In this document: in pieces, positions 2,755-6,424 of the stretch
How positions within the stretch are numbered: the first letter of the stretch is position 1
Layout: every line of letters starts with the position of its first letter
Assembly: GCA_030603885.1 (NCBI GenBank)
Contig: JAUVWW010000004.1
Span: 70,464-102,463, forward strand
Reading direction: 5' to 3'
Length of the DNA: 32,000 nucleotides
Source of the DNA: a bacterium
Lineage (GTDB): Bacteria > Patescibacteriota > JABMPQ01 > JAUVWW01
Notes under the pieces: generated by a model
Databases searched by the model: none
Seen by the model: only the letters and a program-made list of their open reading frames with translations
What the model was told of the DNA's origin: nothing
Made by a program: the position numbers and the translations under genes

Positions 2755-2958
2755 ATGGCTAGACAAACAAGAGAAGCTGAAATTCGCAGGCGACGGAAAA
2801 GAAAAGAAAAACTTGAAAAGCTTAGAAAAAAATACCAAGAAGCAAAAGCTGAAGAAGAAAAGAGAAAAATTCTGGAGAAGGTTTCCAAAATTGCTCCTTG
2901 GCTTTCCCAAGAGGAGTTTTTAGCTACCATAAGGAAAGTCGAGGAGAAAAAATCTTGA
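2755..2958 (+). CDS. Small Lys/Arg/Glu-rich hypothetical protein (67 aa)
   Basis: ORF MARQTREAEIRRRRKRKEKLEKLRKKYQEAK...KIAPWLSQEEF resembles small basic proteins seen in Actinobacteria and CPR. No clear SD. The antisense ORF looks like a low-complexity shadow. Confidence 0.45.
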   Translation: MARQTREAEIRRRRKRKEKLEKLRKKYQEAKAEEEKRKILEKVSKIAPWLSQEEFLATIRKVEEKKS

Positions 2959-3050
2959 TATCACCGTGGGTAAACTTTCTTGATTTTGGAAATGTAATAT
3001 TATGTAGTGATATTTTGCTTATTTTAAGATAAATAACAGTTAAATTAGAA

Positions 3051-3076
3051 AAGCAGACCTTTTATTAGGCCTGCTT
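3051..3076 (-). terminator. Hairpin terminator at the distal end of the minus-strand cassette block
   Basis: aagcagacc/ggcctgctt stem with one mismatch and an 8-nt loop. Read on the minus strand it is followed by ttttct. The stem arms match those of the plus-strand terminator at 30282-30307. Confidence 0.45.
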
Positions 3077-3089
3077 GTTAAATTAGTTC

Positions 3090-3177
3090 GTCTAACATTG
3101 GGCTTATGAGAGGTTTGGCGTAGCCAAATTTGGGAAAATGCCGAGTTGAGGCATTTTCCTCATAAGCCCTGTTATGT
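3090..3177 (-). repeat. attC-like recombination site A (downstream of the nucleotidyltransferase ORF)
   Basis: Plus strand: GTCTAAC(3090-3096)-att-gggcttatgag(3100-3110)...ctcataagccc(3159-3169)-t-GTTATGT(3171-3177). On the minus strand this reads ACATAAC...GTTAGAC, matching RYYYAAC...GTTRRRY. Asymmetric unpaired spacer, branched centre, conserved aatttggg at 3127-3134. Confidence 0.6.
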
Positions 3178-3254
3178 GCCCTGACGACTGAAAGGAGGAA
3201 AGCGCAGCGTGGTTCGAACGACTGAAAGGAGTGAGGAAGTCGGGCGGAGGTGGT
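3178..3254. repeat. GC-rich conserved module, copy 1 (between ORF stop and attC-like site A)
   Basis: Shares gaaagcgcagcgt (3198-3210 = 5096-5108), agtgagKgaag and gcRgaggtg blocks with 5077-5163. Contains the internal direct repeat acgactgaaaggag at 3184-3197 and 3218-3231. Much more GC-rich than its surroundings. Confidence 0.5.
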
Positions 3255-4046
3255 CTATCTAATCTTGTTTATTAGATCCATCATATATTTAGAAAATTTC
3301 AAAAGCACTTTTTTATTCCAACTAGTTTCTTTAATTTCTCTCCTCTGAGAAGCTAAAGCATTTTGAATCAGTTCATTAAAATCTGGAATTTTTTTTAATC
3401 CCCAAACCCCTGCTTCATCTTTTGAAGAAACAACTTTCTCTTTTAAATAATAAAAAACTCTGCAAAGATTGAGAATAGCATAAACGGAATCTTTTTGGAT
3501 TGTTTCTTCAATATCTTCTAAATCATAAAGAATGGAGCGGATGTAATACTTTTCTGGAATTTTGTAAAAAACTTCTTTGGTTGGTTTACCATAAATACAA
3601 ATTCCTCTATGAATAGTCACGGTAATGTGAGCCGCTAAATCGGGATCTCTATTTTCTTTTGTATAATCAACTTTGTCTGTTTCATAATCCTGTTTCCAGT
3701 CTTTTGAGTAGTGTAATTCAAAAGGTGTTGGATAAACAAAATCTTTAAGGTATTTTTGTAGAATCACGCTGAATTCAAATTCTTTGCCAGGCAAATGTTC
3801 AGATTTTGAAATATCTAAAATTATTTTAATCAATTTCTTTTTTGTTTCAACTTCTAGTTTATTTTGAACAACCACTAGAAAATCAATATCCCCGGTTTGG
3901 GGATTAAAGCAATCCATTGCTAATGATCCATGTAAATAAATTCCTACTAAATTATCCTGTAGAATGCTTCTGAAATTTTCCACAATCTTGTCTAACAGTT
4001 CTTTGATTTCTTTTGGACAATTCTTATAGCCATAATTTGATATCAT
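3255..4046 (-). CDS. Aminoglycoside nucleotidyltransferase-like protein (AadA/ANT(3'')-ANT(9) type, NTase domain plus DUF4111-like C-terminus)
   Basis: 263 aa, the same size as AadA. NTase motif GIYLHGSLAMDCFNPQTGDIDFLVVV (GS...DxD). The C-terminal helical region is typical of adenylyltransferases. Confidence 0.7.
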   Translation of the reverse strand: MISNYGYKNCPKEIKELLDKIVENFRSILQDNLVGIYLHGSLAMDCFNPQTGDIDFLVVVQNKLEVETKKKLIKIILDISKSEHLPGKEFEFSVILQKYLKDFVYPTPFELHYSKDWKQDYETDKVDYTKENRDPDLAAHITVTIHRGICIYGKPTKEVFYKIPEKYYIRSILYDLEDIEETIQKDSVYAILNLCRVFYYLKEKVVSSKDEAGVWGLKKIPDFNELIQNALASQRREIKETSWNKKVLLKFSKYMMDLINKIR

Positions 4047-4110
4047 AATTCTAAGTTAATCTTTAGAGATAATAAATGTTTTGGATTTAAAGCCCGCCGT
4101 AGCCCAATTG

Positions 4111-4189
4111 CACATAATGTATCCGAATATCTGAAGTTGCGATAGCAATTTGGGTGGAGCGTAGCGGAACCAGATATTCGGTGTTATGT
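4111..4189 (-). repeat. attC-like recombination site B (downstream of the HAD ORF)
   Basis: cACATAAT(4112-4118)-gtat-ccgaatatctg(4123-4133)...cagatattcgg(4171-4181)-t-GTTATGT(4183-4189). The centre carries the ttgc-gata-gcaa hairpin and conserved aatttgggt (4147-4155). Confidence 0.55.
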
Positions 4190-4227
4190 GATGTAAATTT
4201 TTTATCTTTAATTTTTTCTCAAGCTAT

Positions 4228-4896
4228 TTAAATATTTTTTTGCAACTCCTTGATAATTTCATCTGGATTGTTTCCTAAAAACCACCCTTTTTTCTTTGCG
4301 AATTTTTCGATTTCTTCATTATAGCTCCTGACTAAGAAGGCCTTGTCTACTGAATCAAGCATTGGCGCATCGCCCACACTATCTCCAAACGCGATTGAAA
4401 ATACCTGATTATTTGAAATTTCACTTTTTATAACTTCTACTTTTTTATCCTCGTTAAGCAGTAGTTTGATTTTACCGGTGAACCTTTTATCTTTCAGCGC
4501 AAAGGTTGAACAGTATATCTTATCGATTTCCAATACTTCTAATGAGTCAGCAATCATTTCTTCAAACGAGGCCGAAACAACAATGTTTTTAAAATTCATT
4601 GATTTAAGATAACTTGTGACAGGTTTTACCCAACCAGAGATTTTTTTCTTATTACAGGAGATTTTAGCAAACTTCTCAAATTTTTTTTGTGGCCAGCCGA
4701 CAATAATTTCTCCGACTATTTCTGCTATCCCAGATGCAATATCATTATAGTCGGTTGTAGTTTGAAGAATATTTTTGACTTGGTTTTGAAATCTGTCGGT
4801 CTTTAAAACATTTCTTGAGACAAATTCAATAAAGTCTTCGAACGTGTAACCGTCATAAATAGTATTATCGAAATCGAAAAAAGCAATTTTTTGCAT
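4228..4896 (-). CDS. HAD-superfamily hydrolase (subfamily IB / phosphoserine-phosphatase-like)
   Basis: Motif I FFDFDNTIYDG (DxDxT) at the N-terminus and motif IV GDSVGDAPML near the C-terminus. 222 aa. Confidence 0.75.
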   Translation of the reverse strand: MQKIAFFDFDNTIYDGYTFEDFIEFVSRNVLKTDRFQNQVKNILQTTTDYNDIASGIAEIVGEIIVGWPQKKFEKFAKISCNKKKISGWVKPVTSYLKSMNFKNIVVSASFEEMIADSLEVLEIDKIYCSTFALKDKRFTGKIKLLLNEDKKVEVIKSEISNNQVFSIAFGDSVGDAPMLDSVDKAFLVRSYNEEIEKFAKKKGWFLGNNPDEIIKELQKNI

Positions 4897-4982
4897 TTAT
4901 AGTTTTGATAAAAATTATGATTAAATATATCCCTCTTATAGAAAAAACTATCTTGAGAAAAAATCTAACAAAAAATTTATTT

Positions 4983-5076
4983 CATATAACATATCGGGCT
5001 ATGAGATGTTGCGAGCGTTAGCGAGTAATTTGGGTGAGGGCGCTGCAAGGCCCGAACCTCATAGCCCGTGTTATGC
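4983..5076 (-). repeat. attC-like recombination site C (downstream of the APH-like ORF)
   Basis: cATATAAC(4984-4990)-atat-cgggctatgag(4995-5005)...ctcatagcccg(5058-5068)-t-GTTATGC(5070-5076). Conserved aatttgggt at 5027-5035. Confidence 0.55.
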
Positions 5077-5163
5077 GAGGGTGAGGACGAAATCCGAAAG
5101 CGCAGCGTCCCCAAGTGAGTGAAGCGAACGCGGCGTATGACGCAGAGGTGCCGTTCATCAATT
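5077..5163. repeat. GC-rich conserved module, copy 2 (between ORF stop and attC-like site C)
   Basis: Homologous blocks to 3178-3254: gaaagcgcagcgt at 5096-5108, agtgagtgaagcg at 5114-5126, gcagaggtgc at 5142-5151. Confidence 0.5.
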
Positions 5164-6102
5164 TTAAAAAGTGGGGCTACTATAATTTACTGTCTTTGCA
5201 ATCATTTGTTTAACTTCGTTAGAATTTGGCCATCCTAATAAGGTGTCTAAATCATGTTCAAGAGCATACAAATCTAACCTCTTATCTAAATTTTTAAATT
5301 CAAATAGTTCTGGGTAAAATTCCTGAAACCATATTAAAAGTTGAGAGTAATCTTTTTTCTTAGCAAATTTTTCAAATTCTTCAGACATATATTTTTTAGG
5401 ATAATCGACCATTCTTTTGATGATGTCTAAAATAAAATCTATAGATGACAATTCTGTCCTCTCAAAATCTAAAATTCCAACAATTTTATTTTCTTTAACA
5501 AGAATGTTATCAAAATGGGCATCCCAATAAACTAAAGCAATTTTTTGTTCAGTTAAAACATTATGATTAGCCTCTACAAAATTCTTGATTGTTTGTATAA
5601 ACTCAGGTGAAATTATTTTCTTTTCTTCAATTTTTTTTAGTGAATTTTGGATTTGTGAAAGTATTTTGTCATGCCAGTTGACTGAAGAATTTAATTTGAA
5701 CCGTTTTACAAATTTTTCATAGGATGATTTGTTTATTTTTCTTAGAATATCGCAAAGCTGTTTGATTATGTTCTTTCTTTCAGAATTGCTCATGAGGTGC
5801 CATTTTGAATACAAATTATCCCCCTGAATTTTGGGATATATCATGAAAAATTTGTCATAAATCTTTTTTGAATTGTCATATAAGATTATTTTAGGAACAG
5901 GAATTTTATCCTTAAAAAAATCATAAAAAAATACTTCTCTTTCAAATTTTTCTTCATTATCTTCGTCTTCACAGACTTTAAGAATAAACTCATCGTTAAC
6001 TGAATAAACTTCGTTTGTGAACCCAATTCCAATCTTTTTGAAAGATTTAACTTTTCCTAAATTATGCTGAATAAAAATTTGCTCTACAATTTTTTTGTCC
6101 AT
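5164..6102 (-). CDS. Aminoglycoside/choline-kinase-type phosphotransferase (APH family)
   Basis: 312 aa. Catalytic-loop-like YWDAHFDNILV followed by GILDFE (metal-binding D), comparable to HGDxHxGNIL...IDFE of APH-family kinases. The leading His is replaced by Trp. Confidence 0.65.
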   Translation of the reverse strand: MDKKIVEQIFIQHNLGKVKSFKKIGIGFTNEVYSVNDEFILKVCEDEDNEEKFEREVFFYDFFKDKIPVPKIILYDNSKKIYDKFFMIYPKIQGDNLYSKWHLMSNSERKNIIKQLCDILRKINKSSYEKFVKRFKLNSSVNWHDKILSQIQNSLKKIEEKKIISPEFIQTIKNFVEANHNVLTEQKIALVYWDAHFDNILVKENKIVGILDFERTELSSIDFILDIIKRMVDYPKKYMSEEFEKFAKKKDYSQLLIWFQEFYPELFEFKNLDKRLDLYALEHDLDTLLGWPNSNEVKQMIAKTVNYSSPTF

Positions 6103-6132
6103 ATCAAATGATAAGAGGTTAGATTGTTTATA

Positions 6133-6161
6133 AATTTAGCCCCACTTTTTGCTATCGTAAA
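6133..6161 (-). promoter_or_regulatory. Candidate promoter for the cassette block (Pc-like position)
   Basis: The minus strand reads TTTACG-17 nt-TAAATT about 30 nt upstream of the APH start codon. No SD is visible. Weak call. Confidence 0.3.
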
Positions 6162-6262
6162 GGCACACTCTCAAATGTCGTACAACAAGTATATACGAAC
6201 TTGTTGATTTTTTATTTTTAACAAGCTATTATTAATATATTAGTATGTAATCAAAGCAGTTT

Positions 6263-6424
6263 ATGAATACATCTTATAGAAGAACAACTGTTAATAGTCG
6301 AGACCCGTTGATTAATCTAAGGAGAGAATTAAGAATCAGGGGTTTTAGTAATAAAACTATTAAATCCTACCTTCTTTATAATACCAATTTCTTAAGATTT
6401 GTAAAGAAAAGTCCCGAGTTTTAA
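6263..6424 (+). pseudogene. Truncated tyrosine recombinase (N-terminal SAM-like domain only, 53 codons)
   Basis: My own translation gives MNTSYRRTTVNSRDPLINLRRELRIRGFSNKTIKSYLLYNTNFLRFVKKSPEF*. The LxxELRxRxxSxxTIKxYxxxxxxFLxF pattern is the N-terminal core-binding helix bundle of Xer/IntI-type integrases. No catalytic domain follows. It is divergent from the cassette block. Confidence 0.6.

Follow-up and report, generated by a model that had tools for sequence, protein, structure and literature searches.

Between positions 3051 and 6424 of a 32,000-nt stretch of the patescibacterial contig JAUVWW010000004.1 (contig positions 70,464 to 102,463, the whole stretch being called the window below) lies an integron-like array of three open reading frames (ORFs), each followed by a long imperfect palindrome, beside the remnant of a tyrosine recombinase gene. 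The window is ~35% G+C and all of its genes are on the plus strand except these three ORFs, which have MurJ and a DUF6800 protein encoded to their left and LepA to their right. A preliminary description, made from the letters of the DNA alone, had singled out the minus-strand block as an APH-like, a HAD and an AadA-like gene, and both Pfam matches and coordinates agree with this.

From the recombinase end the array begins with the pseudogene (6263..6424, plus strand) of an IntI/XerA-like tyrosine recombinase, which retains 53 N-terminal codons; the first cassette ORF is 160 nt away. An attI-like half-site, GTACAAC-AAGTATATACGAACTTGTTG, follows at 6180..6206 (plus strand) and is recognised by a box, one arm and a GAAsTT motif. 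It is adjoined by cassette 1 (4990..6185, minus strand, 1196 bp), which carries an APH-fold kinase of 312 amino acids (aa) (5164..6102, minus strand; Pfam APH, 2e-19). Cassette 2 (4118..4989, minus strand, 872 bp) encodes a HAD-IB family phosphatase of 222 aa (4228..4896, minus strand; Pfam HAD, 2e-16), and the ends of both cassettes are placed from the positions of the boxes. Cassette 3 (3096..4117, minus strand, 1022 bp) starts with TTATGTGCAAT at 4117, ends with the G complementary to C3096 and encodes an AadA/ANT(9)-like nucleotidyltransferase of 263 aa (3255..4046, minus strand; Pfam AadA_C, 4e-24, and NTP_transf_2). The array is closed, as had been described, by an intrinsic terminator (3076-3051, minus strand), to which a terminator scan gives 10 pairs, five of them G-C, and a T-rich tail, TTCTAATTT.

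The palindromes were said to start 38-87 nt beyond each stop codon, and the measured distances are 77, 38 and 87 nt for sites 1, 2 and 3, site 1 being the last of the array. The folded palindromes are 84-99 nt long. A covariance model of their family (R1) has just three matches in the window (3087-3180, 4109-4192 and 4981-5079; 75-81 bits, E ~1e-14), all on the minus strand, with 75.4 bits (E 1e-13) for site 1, 79.1 bits for site 2 and 81.3 bits for site 3; since these are the three array sites, the repeats are not dispersed in the window. Each site has perfect 11-bp inner arms (3100-3110/3159-3169, 4123-4133/4171-4181 and 4995-5005/5058-5068) and, on the minus strand, outer boxes CATAAC/GTTAT and a central CCCAAATT, so that the complementary arms, boxes and conserved centre first reported are all present. 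The R'' and R' boxes are GCACATAAC/GTTAGAC at site 1, TCACATAAC/ATTATGT at site 2 and CGCATAAC/GTTATAT at site 3, the junction being read as G|TTAGAC at site 1 (where the strand modelled as folded is the plus strand) and as A|TTATGT at site 2. Folding of the three palindromes as DNA gives z-scores of -3.1 to -7.8 against dinucleotide shuffles (-7.8 for site 1, -3.8 for site 3).

Two GC-rich modules accompany these sites. One fills the interval from ORF stop to R'' box at site 1 (3178..3254, minus strand; CCCTGACGACTGAAAGGAGGAAAGCGCAGCGTGG... on the plus strand), and the other, a variant reading AGGGTGAGG...GAAAGCGCAGCGTCCCC, lies at 5077..5163 (minus strand) and has ACGCTGCGCTTTC in common with the tail of site 1. 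These tail modules and the attI-like half-site at 6180-6206 are additions to the preliminary description.

A family of folded sites and the cassettes between them

The three palindromes belong to a family with a wide distribution. A strict pattern drawn from the window copies (AATTTGGG, a gap of 15-40 nt and ATAnnCnnTGTTATGYG) was found in 111 stretches of species-representative genomes, against ~14 expected by chance on a uniform-composition estimate, and in one IMG/VR contig. A complementary arm stands at the right distance in 89 of 119 pattern matches, the three of the window included. Patescibacteria, or candidate phyla radiation (CPR), form the largest group of host labels, and are joined by Woesearchaeota, Methanophagales, Methanosarcinales, Halobacteria and Thermoplasmatota as well as by Gammaproteobacteria, Bacteroidota, Spirochaetota, Chloroflexota and others. 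In the collected loci (given L numbers here) R1 recovers ~250 copies of the family, and site 2 of the window shares 95-98% identity with elements of L082 and L095 across 59-68 nt, and ~80% identity with site A of L003.

Read on the plus strand of the window, the consensus opens with RYYYAAC, a bulge of 2-4 nt and a stem composed of five variable pairs, TAT/ATA and two further variable pairs; it continues through GAAG, hairpin P2, TTTG and hairpin P3, and closes with the returning stem, a T and GTTATGYG. Box composition over 211 sites shows the imperfect palindrome to be closed by RYYYAAC/GTTRRRY boxes. Among 54 sequences each stem pair has undergone 24-33 double compensatory changes, and it is therefore base pairing that is selected, not sequence; the earlier impression from three copies, that structure is kept while the arms differ, holds across the family.

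Covariation alone cannot tell RNA from DNA. The palindromes fold stably and lie just 3' of ORFs, as would RNA elements such as 3'-untranslated-region stabilisers or terminators, or repeats of the repetitive extragenic palindromic (REP) or miniature inverted-repeat transposable element (MITE) kind, with no role in recombination and with the recombinase stump beside them by coincidence. The strand on which small hairpins are enriched bears on this explanation. Mini-hairpins of the GNA type, counted as 7-nt units such as GCGAAGC, GCGTAGC, GCGCAGC and CTGCAAG, number 574 on the strand complementary to the ORFs, where shuffles give 194 +/- 15, a three-fold enrichment, whereas the ORF strand stays at background (147 against 142). 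Hairpins of the d(GCGAAGC) type are unusually stable in DNA, which together with the strand bias makes it more likely that the bottom DNA strand folds, as it does in integrons, than that the palindromes act in mRNA; the strand complementary to the ORFs probably folds as single-stranded DNA. No T-run follows the palindromes, and as to REP or MITE repeats, the 32-kb window has just three copies, all of them in the array, and copies are clustered in other genomes too. A known structured RNA or ribozyme, considered on account of the three-way junction, was rejected, as Rfam returns only tRNAs at its gathering thresholds and nothing in 2950-6300 even at E<=1.

The GC-rich tail is itself a conserved module of 60-80 nt that recurs across phyla (L008, L025, L035, L037, L053, L074, L077, L078, L081 and others), reading on the plus strand CCCCGA, a mini-hairpin, GAGAGCGCAGCGTGG, a second mini-hairpin and GTC. 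That at 3178..3254 contains the GNA mini-hairpins CTGAAAG and GCGCAGC, the latter alternating in the tail modules with GTGCAAC, a compensatory exchange, and the variant at 5077..5163 is found also in L011, L012 and L064.

At least two sites occur in 49 loci, and in 48 of these 49 all sites point the same way. The 95 intervals between sites have a median of 956 bp and usually hold one ORF, and of 88 intervals 81 have their longest ORF on the strand for which the site is downstream. The window, with its three units of ORF and site, is an array of this type.

The limits of single cassettes could be read from homologous blocks that unrelated contigs have in common, which stop at the outer box on the side away from the ORF. 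An 890-nt cassette present in L035, L037 and L081 at 91-96% identity has T|AAC and CACATAAC| as its ends, and in L037 and L081 its homology stops exactly at the box of the attI-like half-site. More generally, 21 of 58 ends of homology blocks fall within 20 nt of an R' junction and none of the 58 near R''. The AadA-like cassette of the window can be followed in the same way: relatives of its protein with 81-86% aa identity occur in five metagenome contigs from the Joint Genome Institute (L122-L126), with a family site ~50 nt past the stop codon in L122-L125 (L126 ends inside the gene). Homology between the window and these contigs begins exactly after G|TTATGTGCAAT, the upstream sequences all being different, and the downstream ends read G|TTAGAC, TTATAT, TTAGGC and TTATAA.

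A further signature comes from the R'' boxes. The six bases beyond GTT in this box agree at 4.35 of six positions with the flank of the next site towards the recombinase, compared with 3.10 of six for the outer box of the same site and 3.04 of six for random boxes. R'' matches the next site in 67 cases against its own site in 14 (p = 2e-9), which is what circular cassettes integrated through exchange between G and TT would give. On this sequence evidence we assign the palindromes as the predicted cassette recombination sites of one conserved family, and the cassettes as discrete, putatively mobile units bounded at G|TT. The reading of the block as integron-like cassettes with attC-like ends is upheld by arrays elsewhere, by the G|TT boundaries, by the permutation signature and by the AadA-like cassette in other contexts. 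An explanation by RNA elements or dispersed repeats, for which homology breaks exactly at the boxes, circular permutation and the linkage of sites to a recombinase and half-site would have no place, we consider highly improbable.

Two minor observations on the sites may be added. A different site precedes the AadA-like cassette in L123 (150-240) and L124 (1070-1160), where two direct repeats, GTATATnCGAACAGTTCGGnTAT, ahead of G|TTA recall the accessory direct repeats of attI sites. In L110 (1199-1906), and also in L020, L028, L030 and L109, hairpin P2 of a family site encloses a 199-aa HEAT-repeat-like ORF with a copy of the palindrome GCGAGCTCGC on either side, which may point to an insertion nested in the site or to a further point of exchange.

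The recombinase and its half-site

The divergent 53-codon ORF had been described as the N-terminus of a tyrosine recombinase, and this is borne out by a weak match to Phage_int_SAM_4 and by intact relatives in the same geometry. Its nearest relative, at 74% identity, is a frameshifted and truncated copy in L001, which stands in another context with the same small palindrome upstream. A word-indexed homology search led from the stump to two proteins and from the reconstructed L001 pseudogene to one, and an exhaustive search with the stump gave 211 relatives, the full-length ones having 285-290 aa; the stump is 64% identical in the N-terminus to one of these, P0005. Many of the relatives are short fragments (P0004, P0006-P0009, P0011-P0013 and others), and in P0007 and P0011 the N-terminal domain is fused in frame to unrelated membrane-like sequence. 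This list of fragments and fusions suggests frequent decay in the gene family, or truncated contigs. L001 and L118 hold independent decay products of the recombinase.

In the array loci tblastn identifies 15 intact recombinase genes of 262-283 aa (as tblastn-aligned spans), which are 40-48% identical to P0005, their closest full-length relative, and 40-55% identical to the stump over ~35 aa; no other type of recombinase was detected in these loci by the same search. In all 15 cases the side of the array and the strand are those of the stump in the window, and beyond these genes there is no site. Wherever the sequence can be read (L108 has an assembly gap there) a half-site is present 60-130 nt upstream, and it looks like that half of the repeat which is nearer the box, TTCACATAAC-TCGTTTnTATnCGAAnT. 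L001 and L117 have conserved the half-site of the window (6180-6206), upstream of their relatives of the stump.

The array recombinases are similarly close to VchIntIA (161 bits) and to archaeal XerA (152 bits), and their N-terminal domain scores best with VchIntIA. Against the VchIntIA structure 2a3v they align in two stretches with residues 184-244 skipped, and the XerA structures 4a8e and 5hxy align over their full length. In a multiple alignment ~42 aa are missing from all 15 and from P0005 at the position of the IntI1 additional domain; the 2a3v result, obtained with the Protein Data Bank entry, is independent of the IntI1 sequence used in this alignment. Full-length relatives score 197-243 bits with the integron integrase model TIGR02249, split in two stretches and below its cutoff of 265, and 203-253 bits with the XerA model NF040815, mostly above its cutoff of 220, the 53-aa stump being too short to score; the name of NF040815 itself covers 'tyrosine recombinase/integron integrase'. 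Because the IntI-specific insertion is missing, the family is not canonical IntI. A full-length intI with this insertion had been named as something to look for in the genome and in related metagenome-assembled genomes, and the 15 intact recombinases of the array loci are all without it.

The scores mostly above the XerA cutoff, and the closeness in sequence of the XerA structures, would suit gene modules moved by host XerC/D-like enzymes at double-stranded Xer sites, much as the pdif modules of Acinetobacter plasmids are discrete and bounded by tyrosine-recombinase sites. The pdif sites, however, are short duplex XerC/XerD sites in alternating orientation, whereas those described here are co-oriented palindromes of 80-130 nt under structural constraint, whose freely covarying stems point to folding rather than duplex recognition. 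The recombinases share protein size and fold family with XerA and XerC/XerD, but in place of a single 28-bp dif site they are linked to arrays of long folded palindromes. The gene is also not a housekeeping one, since it is decayed here, and it appears dispensable because it has decayed in three related lineages. We regard modules of the Xer/dif type as a very improbable explanation for the array.

Relation to integrons

Integrons are the textbook gene-capture system and are defined by an IntI with the additional domain together with attC sites. We judge it likely that the region 3051-6424 represents a chromosomal platform for gene cassettes, sedentary and of the integron type, with a destroyed recombinase, its parts being the recombinase pseudogene, the attI-like half-site, three cassettes of ORF and structured site, and the terminator. 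In the mechanism that we propose, a site would fold as single-stranded DNA into an outer R box, a one-sided bulge of 2-4 nt, a variable stem and a conserved three-way junction (GAAG / TTTG) with GNA mini-hairpins, and cassettes would be excised and inserted as circles, the strands being exchanged at G|TT of the R' box as they are in integrons. Catalysis would fall to a short tyrosine recombinase of ~270 aa, about equally related to IntI and XerA and lacking the IntI additional domain. As only the first 53 codons of the recombinase are left, the array would therefore be frozen unless a copy acts in trans. Within the stump lies a promoter-like site directed into the array (6378..6405, minus strand; TTTACA-16-TGnTATTAT, 10/12 in a consensus scan); it is a possible analogue of Pc, being a sigma-70-like consensus match in AT-rich DNA placed much like Pc inside intI1. 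The comparisons show the family of sites, covariation in their fold, the arrays with the orientation of their ORFs, the ends of cassettes, the circular-permutation signature, the linkage and geometry of the recombinase and a locus that varies in a relative. Catalysis by this recombinase, the single-stranded substrate, the identity of its strand and expression from this promoter are what we infer, recombination of a folded bottom strand having indirect support in stem covariation and in the strand bias of the GNA mini-hairpins.

Much of this is shared with sedentary chromosomal integrons and with attC-site clusters that have no integron-integrase (CALINs) (Cury et al. 2016; IntegronFinder), namely a recombinase gene that diverges from the array, a primary site next to it and co-oriented cassettes of mostly one ORF, each ending in an imperfect palindrome with RYYYAAC/GTTRRRY boxes and a crossover at G|TT. 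As in those systems, structure is conserved while stem sequence varies, and sites are more alike within arrays than between them. The present system differs in its recombinase, which is without the IntI-specific additional domain, and in its sites, where a paired spacer with a bulge of 2-4 nt on one side leads from R box to next stem, in place of the unpaired central spacer and extrahelical bases of canonical attC; it differs also in the invariant junction motifs GAAG/AATTTGGG, the GNA mini-hairpins and an often conserved GC-rich tail. Of the canonical attC layout, the R'' and R' boxes are present, and the unpaired central spacer has given way in the consensus fold to a covarying spacer stem. 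Similarly, the supposed intI/attI/cassette geometry is right as to the divergent gene and its adjacent half-site, and the canonical IntI is replaced by another recombinase family.

A proxy for a canonical attC model (R2), built from the aadA7 site, nine archaeal attCs (Ghaly 2022) and two L003 sites and distinct from the attC_4 model of IntegronFinder, was used for comparison. Apart from its own two training sites it has one weak match on 98 array loci, the family sites being undetected. The label 'canonical integron' therefore fails with this proxy, while 'integron-like' stands, and the region appears to work like an integron that departs from canonical ones both in the additional domain of IntI and, as judged by the proxy, in its attC sites.

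Several observations weigh against our interpretation. The stump has just 53 aa and stays below the Pfam cutoff (Phage_int_SAM_4, E 1e-4, 23 bits, cutoff 27). R2, run with filters off and at E<=10, has no match to the three window sites, and at site 2 the crossover base is an A where a G is expected. Integron recombination is reported to need the additional domain that the array recombinases lack (Messier & Roy 2001, as cited in PMC9668308), and it is through linkage that catalysis is attributed to these short enzymes. Recombinase fragments in L044 (3132-3392) and L072 (2884-3575) lie beside family sites in an orientation opposite to that of the 15 intact cases. Recurrence in other contexts concerns the AadA-like cassette, with which the metagenome scan was queried, and not the HAD or APH cassettes. 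Lastly, the loci are mostly contigs of metagenome-assembled genomes (MAGs), whose taxonomic labels may be wrong.

In one alternative the array would be an ordinary CALIN, with unusual but genuine attCs served by a canonical IntI encoded elsewhere and with the short recombinase as either a housekeeping Xer or a bystander. The R boxes conform to RYYYAAC/GTTRRRY with the crossover at G|TT, the array in L003 combines a family member with two sites of canonical attC layout, non-detection of attCs rests on a proxy and not on the IntegronFinder model, and in archaea 539 attC sites have been reported against six IntI genes (Ghaly et al. 2022, PMC9668308). On the other side, no canonical IntI was found in ~770 kb of array-bearing loci, R2 detects essentially no canonical sites in 98 loci, the canonical unpaired spacer and extrahelical bases are replaced by a paired spacer and a one-sided bulge on the other arm, and 15 short recombinases stand in a fixed geometry preceded by a half-site like half of the repeat. 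We consider an ordinary CALIN unlikely, though the least improbable of the alternatives to an integron-type platform with its own short recombinase.

The archaeal integrons of that report are another close comparison, with arrays in MAGs of DPANN, Methanosarcinales and anaerobic methanotrophic archaea, Thermoplasmatota and Halobacteria, attCs common to both domains, and most arrays without a detectable IntI. They differ in that all six archaeal IntIs have the additional domain and in that the archaeal attCs tested have the canonical layout. CPR bacteria are not mentioned in PMC9668308, CCCAAATT and AATTTGGG are absent from its supplementary text, and IntegronFinder 2.0 (PMC9024848) likewise makes no mention of CPR. 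The full-text literature searchable without subscription journals yielded neither integrons of CPR or Patescibacteria nor cassette arrays with an integrase that lacks the additional domain.

We hold with high confidence that the window contains a frozen array of three cassettes, and with moderate to high confidence that this array is part of an integron-like system that is widespread and non-canonical in both its recombinase and its type of site, and which as far as we have checked is undescribed in that literature. Whether the system amounts to a second lineage of integron-type gene capture is in our estimate evenly balanced; such a lineage would combine a short IntI/XerA-like recombinase without additional domain and a distinct, sequence-conserved attC with a three-way junction and DNA GNA mini-hairpins, and would be widespread in CPR, DPANN, methanogen-related archaea and several other phyla, with cassettes exchanged across domains. 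If so, it would explain many arrays now seen as integrase-less, the additional domain would not be required for recombination of cassettes at folded sites, and both the definition of integrons and the tools that search for them would miss a large part of CPR and archaeal cassette biology. It would also make the origin of IntI from Xer-like enzymes directly testable and offer a compact pair of recombinase and site for study and engineering.

The two types of site occur together in L003 only (1-1572; IMGVR_UViG_3300029288_000832), where a mixed array stands at the end of a contig that has been classed as viral. Two cassettes with attC of canonical layout are followed there by a peptide-deformylase-like cassette with a family site and then by small phage-like ORFs.

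Cargo genes and chromosomal setting

The cargo had been compared with aminoglycoside-modifying enzymes, and the AadA-like and APH folds are indeed present, but the proteins are distant relatives that score below the cutoffs for resistance enzymes. The AadA-like protein reaches 109 bits with the NCBIfam model ANT_9 (cutoff 340) and every NCBIfam APH model stays far under its cutoff with the APH-fold kinase; the HAD protein passes the cutoff of its HAD-IB subfamily (TIGR01488, 64 bits against 45). Judged by these scores the cargo consists of remote relatives of resistance enzymes, for which no resistance function should be assumed. A tblastn search of the three cargo proteins against 110 loci returned nothing, sites and tails being all that is held in common, and exact-protein look-ups of the AadA-like protein and the stump gave no contig on record.

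The LepA proteins nearest to that of the window come from Patescibacteria/Paceibacterota. In the closest relative, L117 (LepA 86% identical), the gene pairs DUF4012-MurJ and LepA-Pur_DNA_glyco are both kept, and the interval between MurJ and LepA (4989-5790) holds two different minus-strand genes, bPH_2 and DUF1653. This junction has no family site and no recombinase, only an orphan half-site 38 nt before lepA, and the DUF6800 gene of the window is absent. The three window genes are therefore not conserved core genome. The MurJ/LepA junction reads as a variable hotspot in this lineage, and a streamlined genome of the episymbiont type would here carry horizontally acquired cassettes at a hotspot beside lepA.

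More distant relatives have other neighbours at this place. In L118 (LepA 83% identical) positions 1-190 include a 44-codon ORF that ends in ...IESPLDNL, 5 bases before lepA, and represents a C-terminal remnant of the recombinase. A recombinase beside lepA appears from these remnants to be ancestral and to have decayed independently in each lineage.

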